A stretch of DNA of 56,254 nucleotides from Patescibacteria group bacterium (GTDB lineage Bacteria > Patescibacteriota > Microgenomatia > UBA10105 > UBA927). Shown here one piece after another: positions 3,547 through 21,942 of this stretch. The notes below the pieces were generated by a model that did not search any database, had not been told where the DNA came from, and saw only the letters and a list, made by a program, of their open reading frames with translations. Positions within the stretch are counted from its first letter, which is position 1; every line of letters starts with the position of its first letter. Position numbers and translations under genes: made by a program. The stretch is from the NCBI GenBank assembly GCA_038063875.1, contig JBBTUH010000025.1, positions 1-56,254 on the forward strand. Direction: 5' to 3'.

Positions 3547-4740
3547 TTATTCTTTCACTGCGGTATTATTACGACCTTTAATCCAATTAAATAATATTTT
3601 TCCTCCATCATAGACTTTATTGGTTACCTTCCACGATAGACTATTATTTTTTTGATTATCAACGTCTCTATACGCGCCAATCAACAAGCCGACGGCCACA
3701 TATGCAGCCTTCAAATTTCCTTTACTATATTCGTTAAAAGATTGAAAATTTGACCATCGCGTCCACCCCTGCTCGACTAGTGCCCCAATAACCGGAACTT
3801 GATAAACAATACGAAATACGCTTTCTAAAGTAGGACCGTTTGAAACGTCTTCAATCTTATCTTTAAATCCATAGGTCAATAAATCGTTCAATTTATCTGA
3901 TGCCTCACTCGTAAACCACCCCTTATCTCCGGTAGCCTGTCGCATAATTGTATTCCCTACAGCTGTTATATTTTTATCATTCATAACTTCAAATAATTTT
4001 CCTCCTGCGTTTATATAATCAATCTTAGAATTTAATTTCTTGATTGCTTGCTGCGTCTCATCGCTTACTTCTCCTAAAGGATTAGCTTCTGAAATAGACT
4101 TCATCTGTTCACCCTCTGCTTGTTTATGTTTTGTTTTTAACTCATCCTTTAATGGATTTTTTAATATTTTTTCTATAAGATTTGGTGGCAAACTCGTCAA
4201 AATATCAAGTGCAATATTTGGCACCATGTTGCCTACCATCACCGCAGCGCGCATACCACGTGTTTTCATGTCTCCAATTTCCACCCCACCACGAAAGTCT
4301 TTATCAATCGCCATGATGTGTTCACCAATAGTTTTTGAAGTTGGATTTGTAAACACATCTTTTAATGCATCGAACTTCACAGGCCCGCGCTTTTGTTTAT
4401 ATGGAGATCGATCACCAGTCTGATACATTTCTCTAAAAAATGCCTGCCATTCTGTCGGTTCCGGCTCAGGAGCTTTAGGCGCGACCGCGTCTTTCTCGCC
4501 TTTCAACACAGAGACAACTAAATCTACCCGATCCCAATTGAGCCCATCTGGTTTCTCTCGCTGTAACGCTTCAAAAAATGATTCAGGGATGACAACTGGG
4601 GTTTCTTTTGTAGCTTCCACCTTTTCCTCTTCCCCACTCTTCAATCCCGCCACGACACCGACATTTGGATTGACAGGAGCTCCCACCACCTTCTCCGTGG
4701 CTGGGTATTCGATGCGTGTATAGTGAAATTCTTTACTCAT
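3547..4740 (-). CDS. Hypothetical protein, large paralog family L1 (397 aa)
   Basis: Long ORF; shares RQATG...SEAS and NGPTLESVFRIVYQVPVIG motifs with the ORFs at 4891 and 8545. Confidence 0.85.
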   Translation of the reverse strand: MSKEFHYTRIEYPATEKVVGAPVNPNVGVVAGLKSGEEEKVEATKETPVVIPESFFEALQREKPDGLNWDRVDLVVSVLKGEKDAVAPKAPEPEPTEWQAFFREMYQTGDRSPYKQKRGPVKFDALKDVFTNPTSKTIGEHIMAIDKDFRGGVEIGDMKTRGMRAAVMVGNMVPNIALDILTSLPPNLIEKILKNPLKDELKTKHKQAEGEQMKSISEANPLGEVSDETQQAIKKLNSKIDYINAGGKLFEVMNDKNITAVGNTIMRQATGDKGWFTSEASDKLNDLLTYGFKDKIEDVSNGPTLESVFRIVYQVPVIGALVEQGWTRWSNFQSFNEYSKGNLKAAYVAVGLLIGAYRDVDNQKNNSLSWKVTNKVYDGGKILFNWIKGRNNTAVKE

Positions 4741-4890
4741 AAAAAAAGCCCTCTATTTGGGCATTACAAACGGAAGTATACCAAACAAAGAAGCCTATAG
4801 CAAGAGGTGCGTTGTGTTAAATTCCCTTAGACTCCTCTAAAATCCTCTAACGAAATTTACCCAGTCTTTGAAGCTACTGCAGCCGCAGCC

Positions 4891-5658
4891 TTATTTCATA
4901 ATATTTTTTGCGATATGGTATCCAGTCACTGCTTTTGCAGCGATGGCGTTCCCATATTTAAAATTTGATGAATGCTCAAGCGCGTGGTTTAATTTCTCTT
5001 TCCCCCATGTTACTGCATTGCCTACAAGTGGAACTTGCTCAAAGATACGCACGGACGCTTCTACTGTCACAGGATTGATAAAGTTTTCCATAGGATGTGC
5101 AAGAATTACCCATCCGTTTAACTTTGTGATTGGAGACATTTCTCCTTTTTCATTAGTAATCGGCTTTTTCGAAGTTAAATCTTTTTCAACAAGCCCAAAC
5201 ACCCTACTATTAAGCCATACTTGCGCAATTGCATTCATCCATTCAGAAGCAAATGTTGACGCCTCAGAGGCATACTTCGCGTCTTCAACGCCAGTCGCCT
5301 TACGAAGCCACGAATTCATTAACAAAGAGTATGCGTTATCAGAAACATATTCTTCCGCAAATTTAAAGGCACCAAACGCACCCTTCATTTCCTTAATTTT
5401 TGACTCATTTGTAATTGGATCTTCCTTTAAATCATGCATCCATTTCCCGAAGGTTGCATGTTCTAAATGATGCACCGCATGACTCTCAATCAAATCAACG
5501 GCTAACCCTGCCCCCAATGCTATGGCATTAGCCCCTGCCTTCTCTATGCCCCCAGCTTCACCCTCAATTACTGAAAATTGAACGCCGCGAGGTTTCACAT
5601 CAAATAGTTTTTGATATCGAATTTGCTCTGGAGAAAATGATTGTACTTCTGCTGACAT
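4891..5658 (-). CDS. Hypothetical protein, large paralog family L1
   Basis: RKATG...SEAS and INPVTVEASVRIFEQVPLVG motifs; TGGTATACT -10 box 9 nt before the ATG at 5658. Confidence 0.85.
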   Translation of the reverse strand: MSAEVQSFSPEQIRYQKLFDVKPRGVQFSVIEGEAGGIEKAGANAIALGAGLAVDLIESHAVHHLEHATFGKWMHDLKEDPITNESKIKEMKGAFGAFKFAEEYVSDNAYSLLMNSWLRKATGVEDAKYASEASTFASEWMNAIAQVWLNSRVFGLVEKDLTSKKPITNEKGEMSPITKLNGWVILAHPMENFINPVTVEASVRIFEQVPLVGNAVTWGKEKLNHALEHSSNFKYGNAIAAKAVTGYHIAKNIMK

Positions 5659-5760
5659 AGTTTGGGGAGTATACCACATAAACTATCCTATAGCAAGCGA
5701 CTGTCTTCAGTCGTCCCGAGCGAAGTTGAGAGATCTCTCTATACAATAATGAAGTTATAT

Positions 5761-5810
5761 CCAAGGCTGAGCCTTATTGGGAAATATTTCTAGAAAAGGC
5801 TCAGCCTTGA
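5761..5810. repeat. 50-bp REP-like inverted-repeat element, copy 1
   Basis: caaggctgagcctt...aaggctcagccttg; 46/50 identical to 8418-8467. Confidence 0.85.
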
Positions 5811-5815
5811 AATAC

Positions 5816-6109
5816 TTACTTTGTAGTCAACAGTCCCATTCCCACCACAATCTCTGCAATTGCCTGCTGATTAAGGGTCGCTTCTTCCTCGGTCATACCC
5901 TCAACCATTTCCCCAAGTAACGCCTGCATTTCCTCTTTGCGCTTGGCCATTCGTTTTTCGTATTCACGATCAAATACGTCAATTCCAGCCTCAAGTTTTG
6001 TTTGATCTTCTAAGCTCGCCTCATCAAGCTTCACGAGAAGATCGACCTTCTGTGCATCAGAAAAAAGGCGCGTCGTTTGTATGGTGTTACGAAGCTGCTT
6101 TAAGTTCAT
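5816..6109 (-). CDS. Small acidic helical protein, paralog family S (97 aa)
   Basis: IQTTRLFSDAQK...SLEDQTKLE..ID.FD..Y aligns with 11514-11798; AGGAGG upstream of the ATG at 6109; overlaps the end of the upstream gene. Confidence 0.85.
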   Translation of the reverse strand: MNLKQLRNTIQTTRLFSDAQKVDLLVKLDEASLEDQTKLEAGIDVFDREYEKRMAKRKEEMQALLGEMVEGMTEEEATLNQQAIAEIVVGMGLLTTK

Positions 6110-7190
6110 ATTCCTCCTGTGCCTTTTGGTCAGCACTTTTCCAATTTGATTTTCCGTAGTACACTTTGTCTTTGTTCCCCTGCCACCTACCATCTTTACC
6201 CCGCGAAGTCACGCCGTGCGGGACGAAGTGGGGCATCTCCACTTTCTTTCCCACAATTCCCTTTTCATTTCTCACCTGCCGCACTTCTTTCCAATTCTTT
6301 TTCAATTCTCCAAGTCCACTCCATATCATGTCGACGCCAAGAATAGAGACTGGATTGGATAAATTTAACCCTTTCCGAATAAAATCCTCGATTGGATTTG
6401 CAATAGGCTTATCACCAATATTTTCATATTTTTTAAGCTTATCTTCTATTATCGCTCTTTTTTCCTGAAGTCTTGAGGCCGTTCTTGAAAAATCAGCAGA
6501 TCTATCATTCTCTTTCGATGAACGCGGTTGTTTCGATCCAAGCCAATCTAATTTATCAAATACCTCATCTAATTGCCCTTCATATAGCGCTTTATTTCCC
6601 ATTTTTGCATCATATTGCACTTGTTTTGGTAAATCAGGAGCAAACAATGCTTCTCCTGCATCAATAGCTAACGAAGCGAGTAAATGTTTGGCTTCAGCTT
6701 TTACAAACATTGGCTGAAGTCTAAATCCAAGTATCATATTATAAAATCCGCCGATTGCAAGATCTTGCACCCCTTCTTTTACAAAATACGCAGATCTAGC
6801 CTTCCAATTAAACTTAGAATCTTGTAGCGCAAAATTATTAAGCTTCTCTCCTACGTCTCCACCCATTCTAAATCGCTCAACAAGTTCGCTTTTTCCTTGC
6901 CAAATATTTGTCCAAAGCGCATCAGTTGCTTTTTCCATCCCCGCTCCCACTCCCACATTTACGACACCTCGTGCCGTCCGCATCAGCGCACTGTCCCCAT
7001 CAAACGTATCTTCGGCCATCTTACTTGCAGTATCTATGTCTCGAACAATGTCTGCCAATTTAGTACCGACTTTTTCGACCCACGGTTTTTCTTTCCCTTT
7101 CTCTGAGCCCCTCGCCACACGCTCCGCTATGGGAGGTTGTGCATTGGGTATTGGAGATTGATGTGCCGGTCCTCGTTCATTGTGCACCAT
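6087..7190 (-). CDS. Hypothetical protein, possible divergent L1 member
   Basis: Long ORF with EGVQD..N and LSNPV segments, a central coiled coil and VYYGKS near the C-terminus. Confidence 0.8.
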   Translation of the reverse strand: MVHNERGPAHQSPIPNAQPPIAERVARGSEKGKEKPWVEKVGTKLADIVRDIDTASKMAEDTFDGDSALMRTARGVVNVGVGAGMEKATDALWTNIWQGKSELVERFRMGGDVGEKLNNFALQDSKFNWKARSAYFVKEGVQDLAIGGFYNMILGFRLQPMFVKAEAKHLLASLAIDAGEALFAPDLPKQVQYDAKMGNKALYEGQLDEVFDKLDWLGSKQPRSSKENDRSADFSRTASRLQEKRAIIEDKLKKYENIGDKPIANPIEDFIRKGLNLSNPVSILGVDMIWSGLGELKKNWKEVRQVRNEKGIVGKKVEMPHFVPHGVTSRGKDGRWQGNKDKVYYGKSNWKSADQKAQEEYELKAAS

Positions 7191-7202
7191 ATATGTATTG
7201 CG

Positions 7203-7386: not shown

Positions 7387-7788
7387 TTAAATCGTCAGTA
7401 CCTCTAACCCCTTCACTCGTTTAAAATGCTTTGGATTGCCTGTTACTATAACGGCCCCTGCATTCATGGCCGAAGCGGCAATCAAAATATCCATATCATC
7501 AATTTGCTCCCCTTTTTTTGCTAACTCTGCACAAATATTTCCAGCAATAGCGGCATCTTCTGAGGTAAACGGTAACACCCGTGACAAAGAAGTTAGTAAT
7601 GCATTCATCGCATTTCTCTTTTTTTCAATAATGCGTGCATCGCTTCGCTCAATGCCGCTTGTTAATTCAAAGACACATACCGCACTAGTTATCAACGTTT
7701 CTACTTGATGACGTTGAACAAACGAAGCACTTGGCTCTGTTTTTCGTAACAGATCAATAAGCACCGAGGTATCCAAAAAATATGTCAT
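7387..7788 (-). CDS. vapC: VapC-family PIN domain toxin
   Basis: YFLDTSVLID, FELTSG, DDMDILIAA, TGNPKHF. Confidence 0.92.
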   Translation of the reverse strand: MTYFLDTSVLIDLLRKTEPSASFVQRHQVETLITSAVCVFELTSGIERSDARIIEKKRNAMNALLTSLSRVLPFTSEDAAIAGNICAELAKKGEQIDDMDILIAASAMNAGAVIVTGNPKHFKRVKGLEVLTI

Positions 7789-8042
7789 AGAATAATCCCA
7801 AGATTCTTCTTGTTTTTCCGCTTCAACACTTTCTTCCAAAATGCATCATCATCCAGGTCCGTCCCCTTCCAACCACCAATGGCTTTCATGAGTTGCTGAT
7901 TTTTCACTTCAGGCATAGCTCGGACACTGGCATATGGCCTCCCGTCTCTCGTAAGAATTAACTCATCTATAATAGGAAGCATATCTGCATACATGCCAAA
8001 CTTTCGTATAAAATCACTAATCGGCAATATTTTTATATTCAT
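7785..8042 (-). CDS. Antitoxin (Phd/YefM-like N-terminus)
   Basis: ISDF..K, LILTRDGRPYA; 4-nt overlap with the PIN gene. Confidence 0.75.
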   Translation of the reverse strand: MNIKILPISDFIRKFGMYADMLPIIDELILTRDGRPYASVRAMPEVKNQQLMKAIGGWKGTDLDDDAFWKKVLKRKNKKNLGIIL

Positions 8043-8078: not shown

Positions 8079-8118
8079 GTATTAGAATATGTATTAGAAT
8101 ATGTATTAGAATATGTAT
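8079..8118. repeat. 12-bp tandem repeat (gtattagaatat) x3.3
   Basis: Read directly; abuts the TA -35 box (8073-8078) and contains the stop codon of 8106-8408. Confidence 0.9.
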
Positions 8119-8408
8119 ACAAACTTTCCAATCTGCTCTCTCGCTTTGGCGAGTAGCTCTTTTTTCTTTTCTTCCCCCACCCCATCTGTTTCCAATTCAT
8201 ATTCTAAATTTTTATACACCTCTTCCAACTTTTCTCTCAAATACTCCTGCCGAGCGTTCGAATGCTCATCAAACGTCTCAAGTAATGCACTCACTTTCTC
8301 CTTATACTCCTCCGGCAACGCATCAACTACAGCCACCAAATCCCGCTTTTCTTCAGTATTTAGCGCCCGACTATGTTCTACTACTTTTGTAAAATTCCTA
8401 GCTTTCAT
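8106..8408 (-). CDS. Small acidic helical protein, family S (100 aa)
   Basis: VEHSRALNTEEKRDL...LPEE...LETFDE aligns with the other S proteins. Confidence 0.85.
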   Translation of the reverse strand: MKARNFTKVVEHSRALNTEEKRDLVAVVDALPEEYKEKVSALLETFDEHSNARQEYLREKLEEVYKNLEYELETDGVGEEKKKELLAKAREQIGKFVYIF

Positions 8409-8544: not shown

Positions 8545-9477
8545 CTAAAAACTTGTCGACAGTGACGACGTCCCACTAGCTGGCTTTGTAGTTCCCACCG
8601 GCAAATACCCAAATTTCGTATAAAGCATCCGCGCCACCGTAAGATACGAAAGATACAATCCTCCATCTTGGTTTTTCAATTTATCATTGAGCGCGGTATA
8701 TATCTTTTCAACCCCTGCACCAAAGACAGGGATCGCTGCCATGCTTCGCAGTGATCCTTCGATAAATCCCGGATTTATCATAGAGCTAAATATCTTTCTG
8801 TGCAGTGGCCCACCTGCCGTATTCCACCCACCTATGGCAGTTGCCAGATTCCCCATTTCACTTATCGTATTGGCCAGTTGCGACGGATACCGCACGTCCG
8901 TCTCGTGCGTCAATCCTTTCACCGCCACATTGGCACCATACCCTACTATTTTATCCGCCGCAAATTCCAAACCGTCTCGTAATACATATCTATTCTCATC
9001 GGATAATTCTATAAGTGTTTTTTTAAAAATCGGATCTTTTATTTCTTTTTTTCCATCATGCAAAAATCTATCCACTCCACTATCTGCCACATAATCTATC
9101 GCAAACGAACCGCCTTGGATCAGGCCATTCATAAACACACGGCCCAATCGGTGTGGTACATCTTTCCCACGCCATGCAAAATCCACTTCACGTACCAGTC
9201 GCTTCCAATCTTTGTGCGTTTCAAACGCTTCCCACGGCTTCATTTTTTTCGCAAGTTCCGCGCCGGTGAGAAGTGTCAATTCTCCTTGCACTGCCGCCTG
9301 TTCCCCTATTTCTTGATACAGCACGGGCTCTGCCACATCAAAGACTTCTTTTAAGAATTGCGTATATTTTTTCTCCGAAGGATCTATCTCTTTTTTCGGC
9401 ACCATCGGCACGTAGCGCGCTTCCCCCACGAGAATTTGTTTTCTCCCTATTGCCTGTTGCATCCCTACTTCAGCCAT
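8545..9477 (-). CDS. Hypothetical protein, large paralog family L1
   Basis: EFAADK..N..KGLTH and INPGFIEGSLRSMAAIPVFG motifs; ATG lies 1 nt after the upstream stop. Confidence 0.85.
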   Translation of the reverse strand: MAEVGMQQAIGRKQILVGEARYVPMVPKKEIDPSEKKYTQFLKEVFDVAEPVLYQEIGEQAAVQGELTLLTGAELAKKMKPWEAFETHKDWKRLVREVDFAWRGKDVPHRLGRVFMNGLIQGGSFAIDYVADSGVDRFLHDGKKEIKDPIFKKTLIELSDENRYVLRDGLEFAADKIVGYGANVAVKGLTHETDVRYPSQLANTISEMGNLATAIGGWNTAGGPLHRKIFSSMINPGFIEGSLRSMAAIPVFGAGVEKIYTALNDKLKNQDGGLYLSYLTVARMLYTKFGYLPVGTTKPASGTSSLSTSF

Positions 9478-9478
9478 A

Positions 9479-9766
9479 TTACACGGGTTTTCCAATGCCA
9501 ATATACACTTTATTATCATCTATGGGCATCTCAATCTTCTCTCCCACTATCTCACTCAGCACACTCTCCACTCCTTTTTGTATATCCTCTGGGAATTCCT
9601 CCCGTATTTTTTCTTCGGCGGCTAGAAATGCACCCAGTGCATCAATTTGCTCTTCCGAAAGCCGCGGGAATTCATCGATGATATCCAATTTTTGCTCATA
9701 AGAAAGTAAAATACTGTCTTCTATGAGTATCATCAATGCATTCTGCTTATCTTTCATTGTTTTCAT
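9479..9766 (-). CDS. Small acidic helical protein, family S (95 aa)
   Basis: IEDSILLSYEQKLDII...LSEEQIDAL; C-terminal VYIGIGKP motif. Confidence 0.82.
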   Translation of the reverse strand: MKTMKDKQNALMILIEDSILLSYEQKLDIIDEFPRLSEEQIDALGAFLAAEEKIREEFPEDIQKGVESVLSEIVGEKIEMPIDDNKVYIGIGKPV

Positions 9767-9804
9767 ATTTCCCCAATCTCCCTTAGTTCCCCTATCACCC
9801 CTTC

Positions 9805-11127
9805 TTACGCTGTTGGTGAAAACACCGCAGCCGCCTGTTGTCTCTCCGCAATTTTCCCCAAACCTCGTTTCACTGTATATCCCAATACATCCAACGCCAT
9901 ATCTTTGGATACCATCACACTTTTATATCGATTAATTCCCATCTGCATCACAGCGGGGACCGCATCTATGCCATGTGCACCCAAAAATTCGGCAATACCA
10001 GTCGTATAGCTTATCCAATGTGGCACATCTGGGGTCAAATTAAGCCATCGTTCAAAAAAATTCTTAAATACGATACTTTTAGAGATAGATGCAGTTTTCT
10101 CAATAGCCTTTGGAGCTGCTTTTAACACCCGAGATTCTATTCCTTTCTGGATTATATTTTTTCCAAGCATCCTATCAGCTAAATGAGCATCTAATAATAA
10201 AGTTGTTTTATCTGTCACTTCCTTTGCGGCTGTCTTTGCGGATCGCAAAGCACCTCGATATTTCCATTTATCGACAAGGTTATACCATTTTACATCGTGT
10301 GTTAAACCAGCTTCCGTTAATTTACCTATGTATGCCACCTTTGCACCCAATTCAGCTCGCTTCTGTAACACAGATACACCCCGAACACCCGCCTTTTCCA
10401 TCATATTCTTTGCTAGCAATCTTGTACCCTTTTCTGAGGCCATACTATAATCTTTTGCAAGCGATGCCGCTCCCACATTTTTTACATTAAATGGAGATGT
10501 TACTATGCTGAATATATCTCGAGCTGCAGTTTTGGATCGATACAACAAATCCTTTGCCCACCCCACCTTTGGCATGTTTTTATACACTTCTTCAGCGGCT
10601 TTCAACGCTTCTACACTTCCTTTTACATGCACAATAGCATTTACGGAACGCCCTGAATTAAATGCAGTCTTTGCGTATCGAGCAGCTTTCGACAATCTCA
10701 CTGCTGGCTCAAATTTAATGGCTTTCGATGCGAATGCTGCTGCACTTACATCTTTCCAAGCAAGATCCGCATTTTTTGTTATCCCCAACAGCCCCGTCCC
10801 CAAGCCCTTCCCCTCTCCAATCACCGGAATTAAACTCAGGGCCAGCGAGGCGTTTGCTTTCAACTCTTTAAACATTATTTCTTTTTGCTTTTTTAGATGT
10901 GGCTTGATCGTCTCCCCCATCCCCTTCCAAAATCCCATATCCTCGATACTTCGGGTGACGACGTGTTGAGGACTCATCGCCTCTGCCATCATCCGTTCGC
11001 GGGCCGCCAACACCTTTTCCTGCTGTTCCGGCGCCAACTTTAAAAACTCCGGTAAGTCTTCTAATCGCGTTTGACGCGACATATCCTCCGGCATTGGTTG
11101 TGGTGGTCGTTCTCCCATCTCACTCAT
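9805..11127 (-). CDS. Hypothetical Ala/Lys-rich protein with hydrophobic segments (440 aa)
   Basis: Long ORF; LALSLIPVIGEG segment; TATACT 6 nt before the ATG. Confidence 0.85.
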   Translation of the reverse strand: MSEMGERPPQPMPEDMSRQTRLEDLPEFLKLAPEQQEKVLAARERMMAEAMSPQHVVTRSIEDMGFWKGMGETIKPHLKKQKEIMFKELKANASLALSLIPVIGEGKGLGTGLLGITKNADLAWKDVSAAAFASKAIKFEPAVRLSKAARYAKTAFNSGRSVNAIVHVKGSVEALKAAEEVYKNMPKVGWAKDLLYRSKTAARDIFSIVTSPFNVKNVGAASLAKDYSMASEKGTRLLAKNMMEKAGVRGVSVLQKRAELGAKVAYIGKLTEAGLTHDVKWYNLVDKWKYRGALRSAKTAAKEVTDKTTLLLDAHLADRMLGKNIIQKGIESRVLKAAPKAIEKTASISKSIVFKNFFERWLNLTPDVPHWISYTTGIAEFLGAHGIDAVPAVMQMGINRYKSVMVSKDMALDVLGYTVKRGLGKIAERQQAAAVFSPTA

Positions 11128-11513: not shown

Positions 11514-11798
11514 CTAACTCAATATCCCATCCACTCCCGCTTTTATGGTAGACGCGGCGGTCTCCATTCTCTTTTTCTCTTGAAGCTTAGCCTTACCGAC
11601 TATTTGATCCAGCACCTCATACACAGATTTTTTATATTCAGAAATAGACGCTTTGTATTTCCCATCAAATTCATCAATAATCGTCTCTAAAGCCTTCGTA
11701 TCTTCCTCACTATACGTATCCACAGCCGCTAAGATCGCGATCTTATCTTCATCAGAAAACAGCGCCGTCTCTTTAATTTTTTGCTTTAAATTTTGCAT
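11514..11798 (-). CDS. Small acidic helical protein, family S (94 aa)
   Basis: IKETALFSDEDK...SEEDTKALE.IID.FD..Y. Confidence 0.87.
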   Translation of the reverse strand: MQNLKQKIKETALFSDEDKIAILAAVDTYSEEDTKALETIIDEFDGKYKASISEYKKSVYEVLDQIVGKAKLQEKKRMETAASTIKAGVDGILS

Positions 11799-13077: not shown

Positions 13078-13246
13078 ATATACACCATACACCATACACC
13101 ACTTTCTGTCAATACAACACAATCTCTAGCCTCCCATAAACTCCTTTAGATTCCTCTAAAATTCTTTAATCTTATAAAGAGTACGTACGTATTCTCGTTG
13201 TTTTCGCTGTGCCCTGCATAGTCTGGCTCAGCCAGACGACGTGGGG

Positions 13247-15673
13247 TTAATTCGGCCTCGCCATCCCCTGAAGCACCTGATGTGGCCCTAATTCTTTCAC
13301 TCGTTCATTTTTCTTATTAAGCTCTGAAAAATCTATCATCTGCTCAGCAATTTTCTCAAACTGTAGATCATGGGTTATGGCTATCACTGTCATCTCCGGC
13401 CTCTTTTTTCGAAGCGAGGAAATAATGTCGATCACCTGTTGCGCGGACCGTTCATCCAAGCTCGCCGTCGGCTCATCCAAAAATAAAATAGAAGGATTCT
13501 GAAGTAACGCCCGCGCAATGCCGATGCGTACCCTTTCACCACCAGAGAGATGTTTATTTTCCGAATCCAACCGTTCAGCCAAATGATCAAGGTTTAAGTC
13601 AGACAATGTTTGTCGTACTTCTTGATCAGGCACATCTCGCCGCACCCACTGCGTGAGATTTTCGCGAAGTGTCAAGCTTTCAAAAAACTTCACATCCTGA
13701 TTCGCATACCCAATTTTCGTAAACAACGACTCATCCCCATATTTTTTTATATTTTCCAAAGGAATCCCACCAATTTTTACGGTATCTTGTGGCAAATCAT
13801 AGAGGTTGAGAAGCGACCGCATAAACGTCGTTTTCCCTATGCCAGACGTCCCCTTTATCGTCACAAATGTGCCTTGCGGGATATCCACAGACACATCAGT
13901 CAAGATATTTTTATAATTAAGATTCGACACAGACAATGAAAAGTCTTTGACGTCACTTACTGGTATGCGCTTGGCTTCCTTCAGCCCTTCCGGCCGATCC
14001 AACTCATCATACGGCCCCAATAGATCCTCCATCTTTTGGATATCGTCGAGCAGAGGCAAAATACGATTTACATAAAGTCCTGTGAGCTGTCCAAATTTAG
14101 CCTCTATCCCTTCTTGTACGCGCTTAGAATCTTGCCATAATGCAAATGACAAAAATCCTTGAGTATATACACCTCGCATCGGATTTAAATAAGCATCTAA
14201 CTGATCAATTAACTCCTTTTTTTCAACTGGCACTGTACGAACTAAAGTATTTTGATTCGTATGATATTTAATAAATTTTTTATCTTCAAATAAATCGCCC
14301 AACGTTCCTATTTTGAGTTTGCCATCCTGCATTATCGAATCAACCTTTTTGTTATCCTGCAAAAACCAACTTTTTGTTTTCGCTAATAACGCTTCGTCTC
14401 GTTTAAATTGTCCAATATCTCCTTTTTTTACATCTCCCATCACAGTTTTCCAAAGCGCAAAAAGCTCAACTACTGCGGGCACTCCAATGTTTAATGCTCT
14501 AAACCATTTTTGCTCTGGCTCTTCTTCACGTAATCCTTGTCGCAACCCACCACTTCGTATGACGTCTTTCATCTCCATTTGCTCGGATAATTTTTGGCTT
14601 GCTGTATCCATCGCAGGAGATGTTTGTATATTTTCAATATTAGAAAGCGTCGTCAACACTTTCGCATTTACCTTATTCCACTGCTCTAGTTCTCTACGAT
14701 TGTCAGCCAATAATTCTTTCGCTTGTCTACGAGACATGTTTATAAGAGGCTTTATCTTGGCGGCACCCAAGGCAAAATCAGGAAGCCCTCTTCCAACGAG
14801 TGTCGCTGGATATGTTCCCATATCAGCCAATAACGGATACAGCTCAAGATGCATTGTGCGATAAAATTCTAGCGTCGCCTTTTTTCCACGCTCAACCGCA
14901 GACAACACTTCGGAAGCTGGAATATCTTGATACTTAGTAAAGCGCCCCATGACGACAGAGTCGCTAACACGTTTATTTATCTTTTCTTGCAAGCCTATGT
15001 ATGCGCGATCAAATAAGCTGGCAGCTCTATTTCGAAGAATTGACATCGGATATTTAAATAAAAATGGCGCCCATACAGGAGAAGTCTTAAGAGCAATAGA
15101 TTTAAAGTCTTTATCTGTTACTTTATTAAATTTTAGTCTTGTAATACCAAGATCCTGCACTTGCTTCCACACGTTTTTTCTAAGTGCTCCCCCTTTAAAG
15201 CTAAAAAAGACGCCCCACAATCCGTCTGTAACATTTCTAAATCCATCATCCAAGCCAAAAATTTTAGCTACTGTATTCCACCCCGCCTTTTCTTGCCCGT
15301 ATGTTTTATCTAAATCTTTAAGCGTTGAGCTTAACCGTCCAAAATCAAACGGATCTACATCGACTTCTTTTCCTTTCAGAGATTCAACTTTTGGAGGTTC
15401 TTCGGGTGTGATGATATCGTGCACTTCTTCCACCCACTTTTTCTCACCCTCAGGCGTTAATATCAGTCCTTCTTTCGCAAAATCTTTGGCTATCGCCTCG
15501 GCTAACTTTTTCTCATGAGACACTGATACATTTCCCTCGGCTATTACATCATTGACCACATCATTTGCCGCCTCCAAAGTCTTTTCGGACACCCGAAACG
15601 CCTCTGTCACTGCATGCAGCTCCGGCCCCTTCACGCGCGTCTTTACTGGCTGTTTGATCGCCTCTGCTCCCAT
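13247..15673 (-). CDS. ABC-exporter-like half transporter with intact ATPase and atypically polar N-terminal domain
   Basis: Walker A GTSGIGKT, Q-loop YANQD, LSGGE, ILFLDEPT, ITHD; TATAAT 6 nt before the ATG at 15673. Confidence 0.88.
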   Translation of the reverse strand: MGAEAIKQPVKTRVKGPELHAVTEAFRVSEKTLEAANDVVNDVIAEGNVSVSHEKKLAEAIAKDFAKEGLILTPEGEKKWVEEVHDIITPEEPPKVESLKGKEVDVDPFDFGRLSSTLKDLDKTYGQEKAGWNTVAKIFGLDDGFRNVTDGLWGVFFSFKGGALRKNVWKQVQDLGITRLKFNKVTDKDFKSIALKTSPVWAPFLFKYPMSILRNRAASLFDRAYIGLQEKINKRVSDSVVMGRFTKYQDIPASEVLSAVERGKKATLEFYRTMHLELYPLLADMGTYPATLVGRGLPDFALGAAKIKPLINMSRRQAKELLADNRRELEQWNKVNAKVLTTLSNIENIQTSPAMDTASQKLSEQMEMKDVIRSGGLRQGLREEEPEQKWFRALNIGVPAVVELFALWKTVMGDVKKGDIGQFKRDEALLAKTKSWFLQDNKKVDSIMQDGKLKIGTLGDLFEDKKFIKYHTNQNTLVRTVPVEKKELIDQLDAYLNPMRGVYTQGFLSFALWQDSKRVQEGIEAKFGQLTGLYVNRILPLLDDIQKMEDLLGPYDELDRPEGLKEAKRIPVSDVKDFSLSVSNLNYKNILTDVSVDIPQGTFVTIKGTSGIGKTTFMRSLLNLYDLPQDTVKIGGIPLENIKKYGDESLFTKIGYANQDVKFFESLTLRENLTQWVRRDVPDQEVRQTLSDLNLDHLAERLDSENKHLSGGERVRIGIARALLQNPSILFLDEPTASLDERSAQQVIDIISSLRKKRPEMTVIAITHDLQFEKIAEQMIDFSELNKKNERVKELGPHQVLQGMARPN

Positions 15674-15727: not shown

Positions 15728-15985
15728 ATGCAAACGACACTGCTTCAATACCAAGTGCTCATCAAACGGGAAGAAAAAAACTATATTTCCTATGTCCCAA
15801 CCTTGGGTATTTCTGACTTTGGTAAAACTATTGAAGAAACCCAAAAAAACACAGAAAACGCTATCATTTGTCACATTGAAGGACTTATAAAAACAAACAC
15901 AGACGTGCCAGCACCCGACAGTGGAGATGTATACCTTAGTCAAACAAATATCACGCTGCCCTATCCCATCCGCTTTGCTATCTAA
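15728..15985 (+). CDS. hicB: HicB-family antitoxin
   Basis: YISYVPTLGISDFGKTIEE...AI.CHIEGL. Confidence 0.88.
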   Translation: MQTTLLQYQVLIKREEKNYISYVPTLGISDFGKTIEETQKNTENAIICHIEGLIKTNTDVPAPDSGDVYLSQTNITLPYPIRFAI

Positions 15986-15990
15986 TTGCT

Positions 15991-16209
15991 ATGCCTAAAC
16001 TTGTGCCACGAAAGCCTCTAGAAATTGAGCGCATTCTTCTTCATAATGGTTTTGTTATGAACACCAGCAAAAGCAGTCATCGCCAGTATTTCAACGCCGC
16101 CACCAAGGCCCACACAACTGTCCCGTTTCATTCAAAAACTATTCCAGTAGGCACACTTCGCAGCATCGTACGTCAATCACTTTTATCAATCGATCTTTTT
16201 CGAAAATAA
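15991..16209 (+). CDS. hicA: HicA-family toxin
   Basis: GF..SSH...TTVPFH..IPVGTLRSI. Confidence 0.9.
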   Translation: MPKLVPRKPLEIERILLHNGFVMNTSKSSHRQYFNAATKAHTTVPFHSKTIPVGTLRSIVRQSLLSIDLFRK

Positions 16210-16234: not shown

Positions 16235-17005
16235 TTACCCTACAATCTTCCCTTCCACCACGTCTGCAGGATTTGGCTTGGTGTAGATCGGGCCTTCGTA
16301 ATGAGGTTGTGCCTCTCGCGCCGCCTGCGCAGCTGCTTGTTCTTTTTGTAAAGCCTGCGCCTGAAGATTTCGTATTTCTTGCCGCGCTCGAAGAAGCTCC
16401 CGCTCAAGCACCACAATTGTCGCACCACTCACAGAGACTTCTTTTTCCAACTGCCTTTTCTCCGCTTTCAACACCACCAACGTATGATCCACATGCTTAT
16501 ATTTCAAGGCCAACTCAATCTGCGCATCTTTCACCGTATCCAATTTTGCTTCTTTCACATGTTCCCCCACCGGACGCTTATTTTCGAGGGTATGCAGAGT
16601 TTTGTCATCAATGACTTGCGCCGGAATATTGATTTCTTTATGAAACTTACTCTTTATCGTTTCAAATAAATTCAACTTCTTCCATTCTCCTGATTTGCGA
16701 TCGTACTTCACTGGTTTGTCTGCCAATTTCCCCCACATATTGAGTTCCTTGGTATACGTTTTTCGCGTCGCAAATTGCACTTTGGTCATGTCACTTTTCT
16801 CGGGAAAACTGTAGTCGCTGATGACTTTATCGCCTTCGTTCACTCTATACACCTCACGATTTGGCTGCCACTCGCCTTTCACTTCGTAGTGGAAATGATT
16901 CTCAGGCTTAGGAATGAGGTCTGCCAACTCCTTTATTTGCAACGGCGTAAACGGCAACTCTTTCATCTTCGGCCGCATCTCGCCCATGGATGGTTTTTCA
17001 GTCAT
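16235..17005 (-). CDS. Hypothetical protein with C-terminal coiled coil (256 aa)
   Basis: Long ORF, heptad-rich C-terminal half, extended -10 6 nt before the ATG. Confidence 0.82.
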   Translation of the reverse strand: MTEKPSMGEMRPKMKELPFTPLQIKELADLIPKPENHFHYEVKGEWQPNREVYRVNEGDKVISDYSFPEKSDMTKVQFATRKTYTKELNMWGKLADKPVKYDRKSGEWKKLNLFETIKSKFHKEINIPAQVIDDKTLHTLENKRPVGEHVKEAKLDTVKDAQIELALKYKHVDHTLVVLKAEKRQLEKEVSVSGATIVVLERELLRARQEIRNLQAQALQKEQAAAQAAREAQPHYEGPIYTKPNPADVVEGKIVG

Positions 17006-17012: not shown

Positions 17013-17342
17013 TTATATCACCTGTATCCCGTATTTACGGATTTCAGACGCCAATGGATCATATTTATCAGCCAAATCAATTGGGTTATACGGATGCGGT
17101 TCGATATCAAACAACCGGTCATCACGCGCCCGCATCAGTCCCACTCTTTCCGTATGTCTATTATTTCCAAAGGCTGGAGACACCACGCAGACATCGATAT
17201 CACTCCACTGTTTAGCAGTACCTTTGGCTTGTGAGCCAAAAACGATAAGTTGGGTAAACTGCACCCCCTTATCACGAAGCTCTTTTCCATACAAACGAAC
17301 TATGTCTGTAACGTGCGTATTTAAAACTTGTTTTGCAGCCAT
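17013..17342 (-). CDS. Minimal nucleotidyltransferase (MNT) antitoxin
   Basis: FGSQAKG...SDIDV. Confidence 0.9.
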   Translation of the reverse strand: MAAKQVLNTHVTDIVRLYGKELRDKGVQFTQLIVFGSQAKGTAKQWSDIDVCVVSPAFGNNRHTERVGLMRARDDRLFDIEPHPYNPIDLADKYDPLASEIRKYGIQVI

Positions 17343-17707
17343 ACAAAAACCTCCTCACACAACGCCTGCCATTTTTCTCGATATACTTTTTCAGTTACTT
17401 TTTTATAAAAACTTCTCTTGTAATCATCATACCGGGCATCAATACTATATGTAGTTATTTCATTAAGCCAATCTTGTTGAAGTTGAGACAGTGGTATTCC
17501 CGCTTGCTTTGCAAGCTTTAACAGATCATGAGTAAATATAGGAGTATCATCTTTTTTTGAAATTATTCCTTTAAATAGTTTTTCTATCGCTAAATGCCAC
17601 TGAAAAAATGCCCAATCATAATGTTTAGATGTATACGATTCGTTTGCAACTTCACGCGTTTCTACCGCCGAATCAAGCCAATATTTCACGCGCTCTTCAT
17701 TGCTCAT
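17321..17707 (-). CDS. HEPN domain protein
   Basis: WAFF..HLAIEK.FK, THDL..L, ARY. Confidence 0.9.
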   Translation of the reverse strand: MSNEERVKYWLDSAVETREVANESYTSKHYDWAFFQWHLAIEKLFKGIISKKDDTPIFTHDLLKLAKQAGIPLSQLQQDWLNEITTYSIDARYDDYKRSFYKKVTEKVYREKWQALCEEVFVWLQNKF

Positions 17708-17801
17708 GATTGTATTGTACCATGGAGGTTATAGTGCGCAAACATAACCTAAGGGTTCCTAATATACTAGGAACTAGGAATATATATGCATGTCATATTT
17801 T

Positions 17802-18737
17802 TCAACTACGTTCACCAGCAATTTTCTTTAAATACTCGCCAAATTTTTCCGTTATCACAAACGCACCGATACCCTTTCCAAGATCAACAATATCCCCCAT
17901 TTTTTTGTCCGTAAACACGGCAAAACCCTTACGCCACCACCCGGGCTTTAAGGCAATATCTTTATCAATCCACGCTACTGATCCGTCTGTATAAGACTTT
18001 ATAAAAAGTGGCTGCCATTGACCATCTGCATTAAGCGCCCTCGTGACAACTGCGTTTGCAATAGCCTCTGCTTGCTGATTATTTAAATCATGACTTCCAA
18101 AAGAGAAATTTAATCCCTTAGGTAAAATATTCTTTACATTGAACTGTTTATCTAACCTATCAAATCCCGCAATCAGCTCCTCTATCTCATCTTTATCAGC
18201 ATTCATCATCACCGTGAACATATTAGGTATTGGGAACTGCTCTGCCCGAGATTTGTTTTCCCCACTGGATAATTTCTTCTCTGGATCAGCTATAGGGGTT
18301 TTCTTGCGTACATTTCTCATTCGTTCACCAATTCTTGTCAAAAAGTCAGCTCCCCCCTGCCCAAATGCCTCTAAGCCTTTTCCAACAAATGGAACTTCAC
18401 CTGTCCATTTCCGAACAGTTTCATTCCCAACTAATAACCCTCCATACGTAATCGTCCCTGTCACCAATGCTGCCGCCCCATAGTTTCCCACCACTTTGAT
18501 CTTGGCAGCAGTAGCAATATCTTTCTCCAGCTTCTCCATCGCCTTCCCTCGATCTTCATCGGACAACGAGGAGTTTATTGCGATCATTTCTTGAATTTCT
18601 TTGGCATGTTTCTCACGCCACACTTCTTCCGCACCCTTGAAGGTAAATGATTTTCGAAGTTTCTCCTTGCCCCACGCCACGAGTGTCCGCTTCTCAGGAG
18701 CCTTCGCCATACCTGTAAACACCACATTCTCTGTCAT
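17802..18737 (-). CDS. Hypothetical protein, family L2 (311 aa), one hydrophobic segment
   Basis: N-terminal VFTGMAKAP; GAAALVTGTITYGGLLVG; paralog of 20004-20939. Confidence 0.85.
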   Translation of the reverse strand: MTENVVFTGMAKAPEKRTLVAWGKEKLRKSFTFKGAEEVWREKHAKEIQEMIAINSSLSDEDRGKAMEKLEKDIATAAKIKVVGNYGAAALVTGTITYGGLLVGNETVRKWTGEVPFVGKGLEAFGQGGADFLTRIGERMRNVRKKTPIADPEKKLSSGENKSRAEQFPIPNMFTVMMNADKDEIEELIAGFDRLDKQFNVKNILPKGLNFSFGSHDLNNQQAEAIANAVVTRALNADGQWQPLFIKSYTDGSVAWIDKDIALKPGWWRKGFAVFTDKKMGDIVDLGKGIGAFVITEKFGEYLKKIAGERS

Positions 18738-18777
18738 ATATTTTTCATTATATCACCCTAATCTCCCTTATCTCCTT

Positions 18778-19428: not shown

Positions 19429-19495
19429 ACTCCCACTATATCGCGAATGTTTTTGCGTTAAAAGTTCTCTACCCCGCCACCACTTCGGCTTTCTC

Positions 19496-19717
19496 TCAAG
19501 CTTGAACAAATTCCTCTTTTTCAATCCCGCTTTCGCGCAGTATCGCCAAGAGTGTCCCTTTTTTCAAGTCTTTCAAATGGATGGGAATAACTGCACGTGT
19601 TTGGTGTATCGGATGTTTCATGGTCAAATGACTTCCGACCTGATGATGCGTTACAAATCCGAGTTTCTTAAGTTTTTTTACCACATCACGAGGAGTATAG
19701 CTAGGCAACTTAGGCAT
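19496..19717 (-). CDS. hicA: HicA-family toxin
   Basis: LGF...QVGSH...VIPIH...KGTL..I. Confidence 0.92.
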   Translation of the reverse strand: MPKLPSYTPRDVVKKLKKLGFVTHHQVGSHLTMKHPIHQTRAVIPIHLKDLKKGTLLAILRESGIEKEEFVQA

Positions 19718-19958
19718 ATGCAGCGTGAGGAGAAAGGGTCGATATATCTATCGTTGAGACAAAACTTATATCAGAAGGAGCTGATTCACCGTCTTTTGCG
19801 AGGCTTCCGAGGTACGATTCGATCGCCTCTTTAGCTGCATCGGACGCTGTTTCCACAGATTTACCGTAGGTCACACATCCTTTGAGCGCAGGGATTATAA
19901 CCGTATACCCACCCTCAGGCTCTTTTTGAAATACCGCAGTGTAATGATGGATTTTCAT
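19710..19958 (-). CDS. hicB: HicB-family antitoxin
   Basis: EGGYTVIIPALKGCVTYG...AKEAI. Confidence 0.92.
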   Translation of the reverse strand: MKIHHYTAVFQKEPEGGYTVIIPALKGCVTYGKSVETASDAAKEAIESYLGSLAKDGESAPSDISFVSTIDISTLSPHAAYA

Positions 19959-20003
19959 ACCAGTAGTATAGCATACTACCGTTCTCTACCCCGCCACCAC
20001 TTA

Positions 20004-20939
20004 TTAGGAAAGGTGTTTCCTCATAAGCTCCACCAAAGCCGCCGTTGGTTCTACGGCAAAATTATTGCCTCCTAATTCTCGTACCACAACCAATCCTTTT
20101 TTAGCCAACTCGTCCGCCTCTGGACGAAAACGTCTCGCAGTAGTAATACCCACTCTCACGCCATCTTGTAACTGCCCTGCAGCAACATGGATAGGCGTCC
20201 ATTTACCTTTTTCTTGAGCAAGATCAAACATCGCACCCACAATCTCTTCTGATTCAACATGACCAAACGCACTTTGTAGCGTTTTGTTTAATTTTCCTTG
20301 TAACTCTAGAGCGACAGTAGAATACGGCGCAGCAATATCCATCTTCGCAAGTGGATTATCCGTAAGCTTATTATAAAAATCAGCTAGATCGATGGGGGGG
20401 GGGTATTTTCAACTATTTTTTTACCAACTTTTTTTGCTACTTCTCTTACTGTCCCACCTTGATCAAAAGGCGCTTCTACCGCTTTCTTAAACGTGCTATC
20501 TCGTACGATTTTTGTAGCAACCCAATTCTTCGATTTATCTACTACACTAGCTATTCCACTGCGCTGCTTCTCAACCCACCCTGCAACACCACCTGCTGCA
20601 GCCATAGTCCTCCATCGTTCGCTACCTGCTCTCAAGACATTTTGAAACCGTTCTGATTTAACTCCTTTATATATGAGTACTCCACTAGCTGCGGTAATAA
20701 CAGCATCGTGCGCAACATTTCGACCAATCGACCAACCCACCCTCTCTTGTAACTTTTTCATTGCTTGCTCTCGTTGATCTTGTGTTAATTCACCAGAAAT
20801 TTTCTCTACATTGCGCATTTGCTTTTCTACAACTCCACTCGAAGTATAACGCTCGTGAAAAAAAACGCTTTAGCTTTGATAATACACCTTCTTTAGGCCT
20901 CCCCATCCCCTCAAATACTATTCCACCTGTTTCTGCCAT
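20004..20939 (-). pseudogene. Family L2 paralog broken by two homopolymer frameshifts (T8 at 20858-20865, C10 at 20394-20403)
   Basis: Removing one T and adding one C joins three ORF pieces into one 311-aa frame similar along its length to 17802-18737. Confidence 0.78.
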
Positions 20940-20946
20940 AGTTTTA

Positions 20947-21258
20947 TTAAACATTTTCTTCCGCCAACGCCTTGTCCACTTCACTCAACACTTCATTCAT
21001 CAGTCCCTCAATTTCCTTCAAAGCCTCACCATCTTTGATGGTGTCTTCGATGAGTTTGGCGTAGCTTTCCACCGTTACCCTGCTCTTTGGGTCGGCAGAA
21101 AGAAACTCTAACTGTTCCTTCGGCATGTACTTAAGGAGCACCGGCCACACCGTCGCCTGCAGACCTTCAGAAATCGTTGCATACAGCTCTGCCTTGTCCT
21201 CGTCAGAAAGTTTAGACTGTTCAATACGCGTTACAATTGCTTTTAATTTCTCTTCCAT
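20947..21258 (-). CDS. Small acidic helical protein, possible divergent family S member (103 aa)
   Basis: IEQSKLSDEDKAEL resembles the S-family N-terminus; sits directly downstream of a larger hydrophobic ORF. Confidence 0.8.
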   Translation of the reverse strand: MEEKLKAIVTRIEQSKLSDEDKAELYATISEGLQATVWPVLLKYMPKEQLEFLSADPKSRVTVESYAKLIEDTIKDGEALKEIEGLMNEVLSEVDKALAEENV

Positions 21259-21282
21259 ACTATTCCTTTCCGGCTTATGGCC

Positions 21283-21942
21283 TTATGACTTTCTAAAAAC
21301 GTTCTTTATTTTTTCACCAAATGTTGGCGGTTTTGGTTTTCCGTCAGGATACGCAAATCCCTCAAGAATACCTTTTGTTATCGACCCAACATTTTTCACT
21401 GCGCTTCCTGCGATGACTACTGCTTCTTTGGCCTTATATCCCACTATCTTTTTAGCCATAAACTTTTCTGCTGCCTGTGCTTCATATGTTCGTACTATTC
21501 CAGCTTTTGTCACGACATCTAGGCCTTTAAAAAATCCATAGACGCCGATACTAGTACCGCCAGAAAATGGTATCATTCCAAGCCCTATCGTTTTTCCTAA
21601 CACGCGTCCAGGCCACGTGGCGATTCGAATTGTTGTATCAATAAGTCCAGCGCTTGCATGAACACCCGCGGCAACAAGTGAAGATTTTACTCTGTAAAGC
21701 TTTGTGCTCAACTTGTCTCTGTCTGCTTTTGTCATTTGCCCAATATAGGCATCTGTGGCCATCATCCATTTTTTATAAACAGAGATCCTTAAATTCTTAT
21801 CTTTTACCGATAACTTATCACGCATTTTAGTAAACGCGTCATTCCCCTCCAATACTTTCCGCACCGCCCCACGAGCAGCTTCTACTGCTGGATTTTCATA
21901 TTTCACTTCTTGTGGTGTTGGTTGTTCAGACATTTCACTCAT
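21283..21942 (-). CDS. Hypothetical protein with Gly/Ala-rich hydrophobic region (219 aa)
   Basis: Long ORF; GKTIGLGMIPFSGG; ILEGFAYP near the C-terminus. Confidence 0.83.
   Translation of the reverse strand: MSEMSEQPTPQEVKYENPAVEAARGAVRKVLEGNDAFTKMRDKLSVKDKNLRISVYKKWMMATDAYIGQMTKADRDKLSTKLYRVKSSLVAAGVHASAGLIDTTIRIATWPGRVLGKTIGLGMIPFSGGTSIGVYGFFKGLDVVTKAGIVRTYEAQAAEKFMAKKIVGYKAKEAVVIAGSAVKNVGSITKGILEGFAYPDGKPKPPTFGEKIKNVFRKS

Follow-up and report, generated by a model that had tools for sequence, protein, structure and literature searches.

Bacteria of the candidate phyla radiation (CPR), or Patescibacteria, are thought to live attached to host cells. To our knowledge, only a handful of machineries for host contact or export have been described in them, and the bulk of their lineage-specific genes carry no annotation. 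Three kinds of described system come closest to the locus reported here. Type IV-fold ATP-binding cassette (ABC) exporters such as MsbA, McjD, PCAT1, Atm1 and TmrAB, and the ABC proteins of type I secretion, have six long helices before a C-terminal nucleotide-binding domain (NBD), and those of the PCAT/HlyB type carry an extra N-terminal domain that serves substrate docking. In chaperone-type secretion systems, namely type III secretion with its class I chaperones, type VI secretion (T6SS) with its Eag-type chaperones and type VII secretion (T7SS) with its WXG100 and PE-PPE proteins, an acidic helical protein of ~100 amino acids (aa) is encoded beside, and is specific for, a larger non-Sec protein, and several such pairs share a locus with an ATPase. 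In bacteriocin and polymorphic-toxin cassettes, including glycine-zipper contact-dependent bacteriocins, an ABC exporter lies beside cationic zipper proteins without a Sec signal, and a small gene follows each large one. We analysed a 56,254-nucleotide (nt) stretch of a Patescibacteria genome (the window; contig C25, JBBTUH010000025.1, of a 1.06-Mb, 47-contig assembly). It carries a cluster of ~20 genes over ~15-19 kb that encodes an ABC protein, five large proteins (L1-L5) each followed by a small acidic protein (S1-S5), and further large proteins. All coordinates are window positions, and every cluster gene is on the minus strand. Our tentative reading, to which we give somewhat less than an even chance, is that each small acidic protein is translated together with a basic non-Sec protein and serves it as partner or chaperone, and that a dedicated ABC exporter exports these basic proteins or inserts them into the membrane.

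The evidence for this reading begins with the five pairs. L5 (219 aa, isoelectric point (pI) 9.9, with Gly/Ala-rich, weakly hydrophobic helices; 21283-21942) is followed by S5 (103 aa, acidic and helical; 20947-21258), L1 (199 aa, with the glycine zipper GALIGGAIG; 11802-12401) by S1 (94 aa, acidic; 11514-11798), L2 (440 aa, pI 9.8, with an IPVIG motif; 9805-11127) by S2 (95 aa, pI 4.3; 9479-9766), L3 (310 aa, all-alpha; 8545-9477) by S3 (100 aa; 8106-8408), and L4 (367 aa, basic; 6087-7190) by S4 (97 aa, acidic; 5816-6109). All ten open reading frames (ORFs), singled out as large-small pairs in a preliminary description of the sequence, are present on the minus strand. We compared the window with 20 related loci from 19 genomes, of which 17 belong to the same genus and the other two are G020 and G025. 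Across the window and these loci, 84/85 S-type ORFs are preceded within 250 nt by an ORF of 100 aa or more on the same strand, and the pairing is thus conserved elsewhere. Clustering placed S2 with L2 (18/18), S3 with L3 (18/18, plus the pair in G025) and S4 or S1 with L4 (19) or L1 (5). S5-type genes adjoin several L5-like families, and two of their apparent partners are glutamate dehydrogenase (GDH). It could be argued that there is no system here, only unrelated lineage-specific hypothetical genes that are neighbours by chance, since CPR genomes are rich in unannotated genes and no L or S family has a known function. The conserved pairing already contradicts a chance neighbourhood; together with synteny over 17 genomes, the overlap of stop and start codons, and N-terminal and phi-P-phi-phi-G motifs shared well above background (all described below), it makes this explanation very improbable.

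The paired genes are closely coupled. The distance from the L stop to the S start is mostly -26 to +12 nt overall, being -4 to +1 nt for L1-S1, mostly -4 to +2 nt for L2-S2 and mostly -8 to +10 nt for L3-S3, and in 16/17 loci S4 starts 17-26 nt before L4 ends. In the window, the S genes have Shine-Dalgarno (SD)-like sequences, and -10-like boxes end 6-9 nt before the ATG of L2 (6 nt), B, C, E and the ABC gene, the box of B being TGGTATACT at 9 nt. The boxes near L starts and the SD-like sequences at S suggest that the pairs may be leaderless L-S bicistrons, and leaderless mRNAs may be common in this organism, as far as the letters of the sequence suggest. Boxes resembling TATAAT or TATACT, often with an upstream TG, also lie 6-9 nt before the ATG of HicB (19958), HEPN (17707) and GDH (24409). 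The large-then-small direction of pairing is favoured by a lone pair in G025 (locus L023, of another family), in which a B-like gene precedes an S gene, by the gain or loss of L1-S1 as a unit and the second L1-like/S1-like pair on contig C37, and by the placement of toxin-antitoxin (TA) insertions.

The partners are also complementary in charge. Across the loci, the median pI is 7.8-9.9 for the L proteins and 4.5-6.6 for the S proteins. Net charge per 100 residues is +6.8 for L5 and -8.7 for S5, +4.0 for L2 and -7.0 for S2, +2.6 for L1 and -4.3 for S1, +2.6 for L4 and -3.2 for S4, and +0.3 for L3 and -1.0 for S3, the L and S rankings being inverse over the five pairs. Between genomes, charge covaries negatively in L2/S2 (rho -0.74, n=16) and L3/S3 (rho -0.57, n=18), each value being the most negative of its row (non-cognate combinations, -0.42 to +0.47), although the kinship of the genomes weakens these statistics. 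A complex prediction for L4 with S4, run without controls, gave scores of 0.79, 0.00 and 0.00 with the median under the mark, and carries no weight for or against binding.

The small proteins of the window are all acidic (pI 4.3-5.2), and sequence comparison places S1-S4 in one family. In BLAST against a database of the five sequences, S1 and S4, its nearest relative, matched with an expectation (E) value of 7e-11, the pairs S1/S2, S1/S3 and S3/S4 with E 0.004, and S2/S3 with E 0.008. Comparison of ortholog profiles by hhalign gave 81% for S3 against S4 and 25% for S2 against S4. S4 is the best conserved of the four, with 16 invariant columns among 17 orthologs. For S5, BLAST against S1-S4 gave E 0.23 or worse and ortholog profiles gave 2-5% (2% for S4 against S5); a pooled S1-4 profile reached 39% against S5, limited to the N-terminal 30 columns. 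The paralogy first proposed for all the small proteins therefore stands for S1-S4, but by these comparisons S5 is a separate family whose paralogy to them is not demonstrable.

None of S1-S5 belongs to a Pfam family. In a protein language model atlas, the neighbours of S5 were clusters of DUF5663 (PF18908), with scores of 0.89-0.91 and 202-208 of 256 features in common. An alignment of 29 S5 sequences compared by hhalign with 34 DUF5663-type ORFs from other Patescibacteria gave 84% (E 8e-6, 101 columns), and the S1-4 profile gave 32% (E 5e-4); reversed-profile controls for both stayed at or below 1.4%. At E <= 0.01, the Pfam DUF5663 model (cut-off 23.7 bits) matched neither the window genome nor any of the 17 same-genus genomes, and the window S5 gave no match to it at E <= 10; the 29 S5 members brought up 35 families, and it is absent from the 25 of these that were listed. 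S5 is probably a distant DUF5663 relative at the superfamily level, not a Pfam-level member, and S1-4 form a separate family that is possibly related to DUF5663. DUF5663 was present in 64/401 sampled Patescibacteria genomes and in 0/14 control genomes, and nothing on it was found in the literature searched (supplements aside). A wide protein search with the S profile returned 243 unnamed proteins, without any name or domain.

Each genome has 1-4 S5-type genes. Elsewhere in the genus we found 24 S5-S5 fusions of 212-218 aa (P0189-P0212; loci L029 and L031), as well as unfused tandem S5 genes in locus L022. The fusions suggest that S5-type proteins act as dimers. Tandem and fused genes, the ~100-aa helical nature of the S proteins, and the peptide exporters McjD and PCAT1 among the fold matches of the ABC protein would all suit a role of S as exported cargo, in the form of WXG100-like helical dimers, with the L proteins as membrane-associated parts of the apparatus. 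We consider this improbable, because no WXG motif and no double-glycine leader is visible in the S alignments, because one-to-one pairing of S and L families suits partner binding better than a common cargo, and because S5 is highly conserved, unlike most secreted host-contact factors.

Canonical DUF5663 genes have surroundings of their own. Many of them (L057-L083) lie directly downstream of an IF-2-like gene and face a methionyl-tRNA formyltransferase-like gene, to judge by ORF starts, a putative translation-initiation neighbourhood that is unlike that of S5. For 10/34 DUF5663-type genes, the next gene is a same-strand ORF of at least 440 aa. In seven loci (L053, L055, L073, L080, L081, L084 and L085), an ORF of 473 aa or more begins 3-36 nt after a DUF5663-type gene on the same strand, the lengths being lower bounds as these ORFs run off the locus end. 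The seven large ORFs form one BLAST family, of which the G019 member has a glycine-zipper segment. These pairs are small-then-large, opposite to the order in the window, and the ~480-aa proteins gave at most 0.6% in profile comparisons with the L families.

The large proteins, first described as an array of amphipathic proteins, belong to several families that appear unrelated in sequence. Among 28 profile pairs of L1-L5, A, B and C, hhalign related only L3-B (98.9%), A-B (96.7%) and L3-A (92%), the remaining 25 pairs being at or below 9%; L3, A and B are the sole paralogs. A wide search with the L3/A/B profile found at least 30 proteins, without name or domain. Together, the cluster encodes ~10 basic, all-helical proteins without Sec signals from at least five unrelated families. 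No Pfam family was found for L1-L5, A, B, C, D, E or F, no NCBIfam family for L1-L5, A, B, C or E, no PADLOC family in the seven L-type and two S proteins scanned, and no PHROG match for the ten proteins scanned. The first impression that no known family is represented thus holds for the L proteins and S1-4, but not for S5, the probable DUF5663 relative, or for the ABC protein, an ABCB-like exporter. Profile comparisons of the L families with the S profiles and with the ABC N-terminus were all at or below 10%.

Several properties read from the letters in the preliminary description were confirmed. The large proteins have no Kyte-Doolittle segment of 1.4 or above, no signal peptide and no strong transmembrane segment. 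The GxxxGxxxG glycine zipper is present in L1, L2, L5 and A, and the motif [IV]P[VLFI][IVF]G in L2, L3, A, B and C, whereas the remaining genome has 16 hits in 303,018 residues. Amphipathicity, attributed to all the large proteins, was borne out for L2, L3, L4 and A, whose mean helical hydrophobic moment is at the 92nd-96th genome percentile; L1, B and C are average. Median pI is 9.3-9.9 for L1, L2, L4, L5 and C and 7.8-8.8 for L3, B and A. An AlphaFold2 (AF2) model of L3, built on 47 L3/B/A sequences, is all-alpha with long helical hairpins (predicted local distance difference test score (pLDDT) 76, predicted TM-score (pTM) 0.69). Its best match in the PDB by Foldseek had E 0.29, and its best match among 48,161 chains by VIA-align had a Z of 6.0 (the MxB stalk), far under the meaningful level for helical bundles; as both are too weak, no fold was assigned. 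An atlas search with L2 gave no usable lead, with scores at or below 0.80 and TM-scores at or below 0.32. Nothing on glycine-zipper proteins in Patescibacteria was found in the literature searched (supplements aside).

Median identity to the window proteins is 29-41% for L orthologs and is higher for GDH (68%) and S5 (59%, with values up to 88%); these rates are consistent with exposed or fast-adapting proteins. A contig of a groundwater DNA run (X9) matches the flanks of L2 over 9541-10778, a segment within L2 and the end of S2, and has 333 + 771 bases replaced by 303 + 723 unlike bases; this single contig points to a strain with diverged internal L2 segments. The same assembly holds, on the 1.5-kb contig C37 (L001, 187-1264), a second pair of L1-like (262 aa) and S1-like (95 aa) genes and, on contig C31 (L002, 4854-5063), a truncated S1-like ORF of 69 aa. 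Either a duplicate copy or another strain's variant could account for them, as could a leftover of binning.

The only cluster protein with recognisable domains is the ABC protein (808 aa from the ATG at 15673; 13247-15673). Its NBD matches ABC_tran (PF00005) at residues 591-737 with E 4.6e-29, and its nearest relatives among PDB sequences are ABCB4, ABCB1 and BmrA (E down to 6e-37). Walker A (GTSGIGKT), the LSGGE signature, Walker B with its glutamate (LDEPT) and the histidine motif (ITHD) are all present, and the NBD is of the exporter type (ABCB/MsbA/CydDC). The protein consists of an N-terminal helical extension (~aa 1-130), six long helices (~187-552) and the NBD (~575-790). In an AF2 model built on 15 sequences, which is of moderate confidence (pLDDT 67), the helices before the NBD span 187-242, 253-295, 297-344, 382-416, 420-449 and 483-552. 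Foldseek matched the model to MsbA, McjD, PCAT1, Atm1, TmrAB and CydDC over ~700 columns with E ~1e-16 and a target TM-score of 0.5-0.7. Modelling and motifs together identify it as a predicted ABCB-like type IV-fold half-transporter with an extra N-terminal helical domain. It had been noted as an odd ABC ATPase; it is indeed an ABC protein and odd, but is better described as a full half-transporter with weakly hydrophobic helices and an N-terminal domain.

The N-terminal 570 residues have no Pfam family, and the window protein had no match to ABC_membrane (PF00664) at E <= 0.1. Among ten remote members of the N-domain family, five pass the 28-bit cut-off of ABC_membrane, one falls below it and four have no match. 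The N-domain family comprises 38 clusters among 1.84 billion representatives. Compared with the S and DUF5663 profiles, the N-terminal 135 residues gave at most 10%. PADLOC matched the ABC protein at the level of the NBD only. In the literature searched on ABC transporters and secretion in Gottesmanbacteria, nothing on this locus was found (supplements aside).

The cluster is conserved and lineage-specific: it is found in one genus of ultra-small bacteria from groundwater (Gottesmanbacteria), and a sister genus has a reduced version. A mixed S profile (S5 included) had 4-9 matches in each of the 17/17 same-genus genomes; outside the genus it matched in one of seven other genera of the family (G020) and further only marginally. 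When the S4 pattern was scanned against 185,579 species, each represented by one genome, 16 loci were confirmed, apparently of the same group. In all 17 same-genus genomes the order is GDH, S5 units (1-4), C, (L1-S1), ABC x1-3, (E), L2-S2, L3-S3, L4-S4, B and A, complete or cut only by contig ends. Copy number varies between genomes for the S5 units, the ABC genes and L1-S1, which is an accessory unit present in some genomes of the genus and gained or lost as a whole. L5 orthologs were found by BLAST in three loci. In a 401-genome sample of the class, the ABC N-domain was present in 11/11 same-genus genomes and one distant genome (G093), and in 0/17 genomes from other genera of the family. It was also found in G020; G025, G027, G030 and G040 gave no match. 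Apart from G093, the ABC family was found in the same two genera as the S and L genes, and their co-occurrence amounts to about two independent lineages. A mobile element was considered and rejected, as the cluster has a fixed position between GDH and tRNA-Ala/23S rRNA and no integrase is in the locus.

This fixed arrangement bears on a second explanation, in which the L proteins are ABC-exported, membrane-damaging toxins (bacteriocins or effectors) and the S proteins their cognate immunity proteins. A small gene directly downstream of each large one, glycine-zipper segments in L1, L2, L5 and A, an exporter-type ABC protein within the cluster, the many TA modules settled in the locus and the strain variant with replaced L2 stretches can all be cited for it. 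A polymorphic toxin-immunity array would not, however, be expected to show synteny fixed over 17 same-genus genomes, with the same orthologous pairs in the same order and no strain-to-strain turnover of cassettes. Immunity proteins against pore formers are usually membrane proteins, but the S proteins are soluble and acidic. In addition, S5 shows higher conservation than its partners, and A and B have no S gene. Scanning the L and S proteins with Pfam, NCBIfam and PADLOC revealed no toxin or defence family. We therefore regard toxin and immunity as quite unlikely roles, if a shade less so than S as cargo. Of the two cassette types to which the locus was originally likened, effector-chaperone and effector-immunity, the former is favoured by specific, coupled pairs of complementary charge, and the latter is disfavoured by fixed 1:1 orthologs in a housekeeping context. 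The activities first suggested for the large proteins, namely pore formation, fusion or lipid scavenging, are conjectural. L-S as toxin-antitoxin pairs was also rejected, the L proteins being too large and of no such family.

Collectively, specific conserved pairs, translational coupling, complementary charge and a co-occurring exporter-type ABC protein fit L proteins as substrates and S proteins as their chaperones or partners. Under this export reading, each S, made together with its L, would bind it in the cytoplasm and mask its basic or weakly hydrophobic helices, whether as chaperone or as co-subunit. The ABC exporter, possibly via its N-terminal domain, would then export the L proteins or insert them into the membrane, and the L proteins would act in the envelope or at contact with the host cell. 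A wider version is that CPR bacteria have an undescribed export or insertion apparatus, in which ABCB-like exporters, with degenerate membrane helices and a helical domain for docking, would deliver a battery of non-Sec L proteins of glycine-zipper or amphipathic type to the surface or host membrane, each with a DUF5663-type chaperone and an M-x-E...P tag, and in which the wider DUF5663 family would be a general CPR class of partners or chaperones. We think this version unlikely.

The proposed tag is an N-terminal motif, M-[STADGNV]{1,2}-E followed by a proline within 10 residues. It is present in 7/10 large locus proteins including the ABC protein (L1, L2, L5, B, C, E and ABC) and in 9/910 other ORFs of the genome (1%), a count that used internal ATGs for B (5658) and ABC (15673) and the first start codon for background ORFs. 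The orthologs (L015-L034) retain it. It could reflect processing, targeting or leaderless translation. One of the nine background ORFs, outside the locus, encodes 628 aa (47291-49177, minus strand) and starts M-A-E...P (MAEKHPHP...).

Several points weigh against the export reading, beginning with this motif: the starts were chosen differently for locus and background, and a sequence shared with the ABC protein is a poor fit to a secretion signal. The window ABC protein has no 19-residue Kyte-Doolittle segment of 1.4 or above and its alignment-mean peaks do not exceed 0.95 (paralogs, 1.07-1.79), and this weak hydrophobicity of the helices makes membrane insertion itself uncertain. The L3 paralogs A and B have no S partner. 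In the S5 sub-array the direction of pairing is ambiguous, since L and S alternate along it and GDH is in one case directly followed by an S5-type gene. Charge does not covary in L4/S4 (rho +0.30). In G020 the ABC N-domain is encoded on a contig other than that of the L/S genes, and G025 has a B-like/S pair yet no ABC match. The genomes are close kin, so counts of co-occurrence and covariation are not independent. What we observed are the gene models and families, the synteny, the specific pairing with its start/stop coupling, the complementary charges and the exporter fold; from these we infer that L and S bind each other physically, that the ABC protein carries out export and that the large proteins have a role at the surface or in contact with a host.

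Some of the same points suit a third explanation, in which nothing is secreted: L and S would form a structural or membrane-shaping assembly on the cytoplasmic side, either heteromeric helical complexes at the membrane's inner face or a scaffold in the cytoplasm, and the ABC protein would export lipids or small molecules or be a mere neighbour. Fixed 1:1 orthology and synteny resemble those of a multi-subunit machine, there are no signal peptides or strong transmembrane segments, the L3 model is a long helical hairpin bundle, and S5 is strongly conserved. The nearest solved relatives of the NBD include the lipid translocators ABCB4 and MsbA, and the ABC gene of G020 is unlinked from its L/S genes. 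This assembly is an alternative to be taken seriously, though we think it doubtful, and slightly less so than the CPR-wide apparatus outlined above: the L proteins evolve fast relative to GDH, the S5 units, ABC genes and L1-S1 vary in copy number, and the ABC family is found in the same two genera as L/S.

There is a weak hint of expression. Contigs of an aquifer RNA-Seq library (X14) cover parts of L1, ABC, E, C and F/HicB at 99-100% identity; among the matches listed none lies on L2-A, and the uncovered parts are uninformative. Contigs of an RNA library may hold DNA and cannot show transcript starts or levels.

In the direction of transcription, the window reads GDH (22991-24409, by Pfam), PIN module, L5, S5, D, F, HicBA, C, HEPN/NT, E, ABC, RHH/PIN-like module, L1, S1, L2, S2, L3, S3, PIN module, L4, S4, B and A, and then tRNA-Ala (3204-3277, minus strand) and 23S rRNA (1-2942, minus strand). 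L5 leads the cluster and A closes it. D (144 aa; 20384-20818) is basic, with an N-terminal helix motif like that of C and a weak BLAST link to C-group proteins; D and F (112 aa; 20004-20342), which comes after it, are of no recognised family. C (311 aa; 17802-18737) is a basic, conserved cluster member with a VPFVG motif, of 165-294 aa in other genomes. E (256 aa; 16235-17005), whose C-terminal half is coiled-coil-like, adjoins ABC genes in four other loci. B (255 aa from the ATG at 5658; 4891-5658, with the ORF extending to 5679) and A (397 aa; 3547-4740) are the L3 paralogs.

Six TA modules lie within ~19 kb: three PIN-type, one NT/HEPN, one HicAB and a plus-strand HicA-type. They are the PIN-type module between GDH and L5 (22088-22785), HicAB (19496-19958), NT/HEPN (17013-17707), the HicA-type gene (15728-16209, plus strand), the RHH/PIN-like module (12440-13122) and PIN with its 85-aa upstream gene (7387-8042, minus strand), which is outside the system. 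The Pfam families are PIN, HEPN, NTP_transf_2, HicA, HicB_lk_antitox and a weak RHH_5. In the window and in related loci the modules are always between conserved units and never separate an L from its S. They are mostly absent at these sites in related loci, with the PIN module between S3 and L4 recurring in two and the HEPN/NT module in one, and are mostly window-specific insertions. Within the 23S rRNA match, a 145-aa ORF (417-854, minus strand) reads like a LAGLIDADG homing endonuclease; LAGLIDADG-type ORFs occur in rRNA introns of CPR bacteria.

We found no description of the cluster in print (supplements aside), and no family in it has a name except the ABC domains. The locus is a clean case in that the sole recognisable part of a syntenic cluster is an exporter, and it offers testable pairs, cognate and non-cognate, of large basic and small acidic proteins. 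For DUF5663, which is spread across the Patescibacteria and has no known role, it provides a first lead to function. Its reach is limited for now to the full cluster in one genus and the reduced form in one sister genus. If the export reading is true, monoderm-like ultra-small bacteria would have a further route for non-Sec proteins, one based on an ABC exporter and assisted by chaperones.

Compared with known families and systems, S5 has the same length and helical pattern as DUF5663, unlike which it does not appear to lie in a translation-factor neighbourhood. No link to phage or anti-phage defence was seen in the proteins scanned, which had no PHROG match and no PADLOC match beyond a generic NBD. 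The locus resembles bacteriocin and polymorphic-toxin cassettes in its exporter, cationic zipper proteins and small downstream genes. In contrast to these, its L proteins are of 20-48 kDa and not peptides, have no leader or toxin domain, and are orthologous and fixed in order across the genus, and its S proteins are soluble and acidic. The likeness to type III, T6SS and T7SS lies in the specific acidic helical neighbours and in several pairs sharing a locus with an ATPase. Here, however, the ATPase is an ABC exporter, the order is large-then-small, there is no sequence relation, and the locus, where alone EccC/EssC were looked for, has no injectisome, T6SS or FtsK-like EccC/EssC gene and no protein of a WXG or PE/PPE Pfam family. 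Unlike type I secretion, it has no membrane-fusion or outer-membrane partner. The ABC protein itself agrees with type IV-fold exporters in its C-terminal NBD motifs, in the six long helices and in the extent of the fold match, and differs in lacking a Pfam ABC_membrane match and in its far less hydrophobic membrane helices. Its extra N-terminal domain recalls PCAT/HlyB-type exporters; being all-helical in the model and without a Pfam match, it appears unrelated to the C39 peptidase domain.

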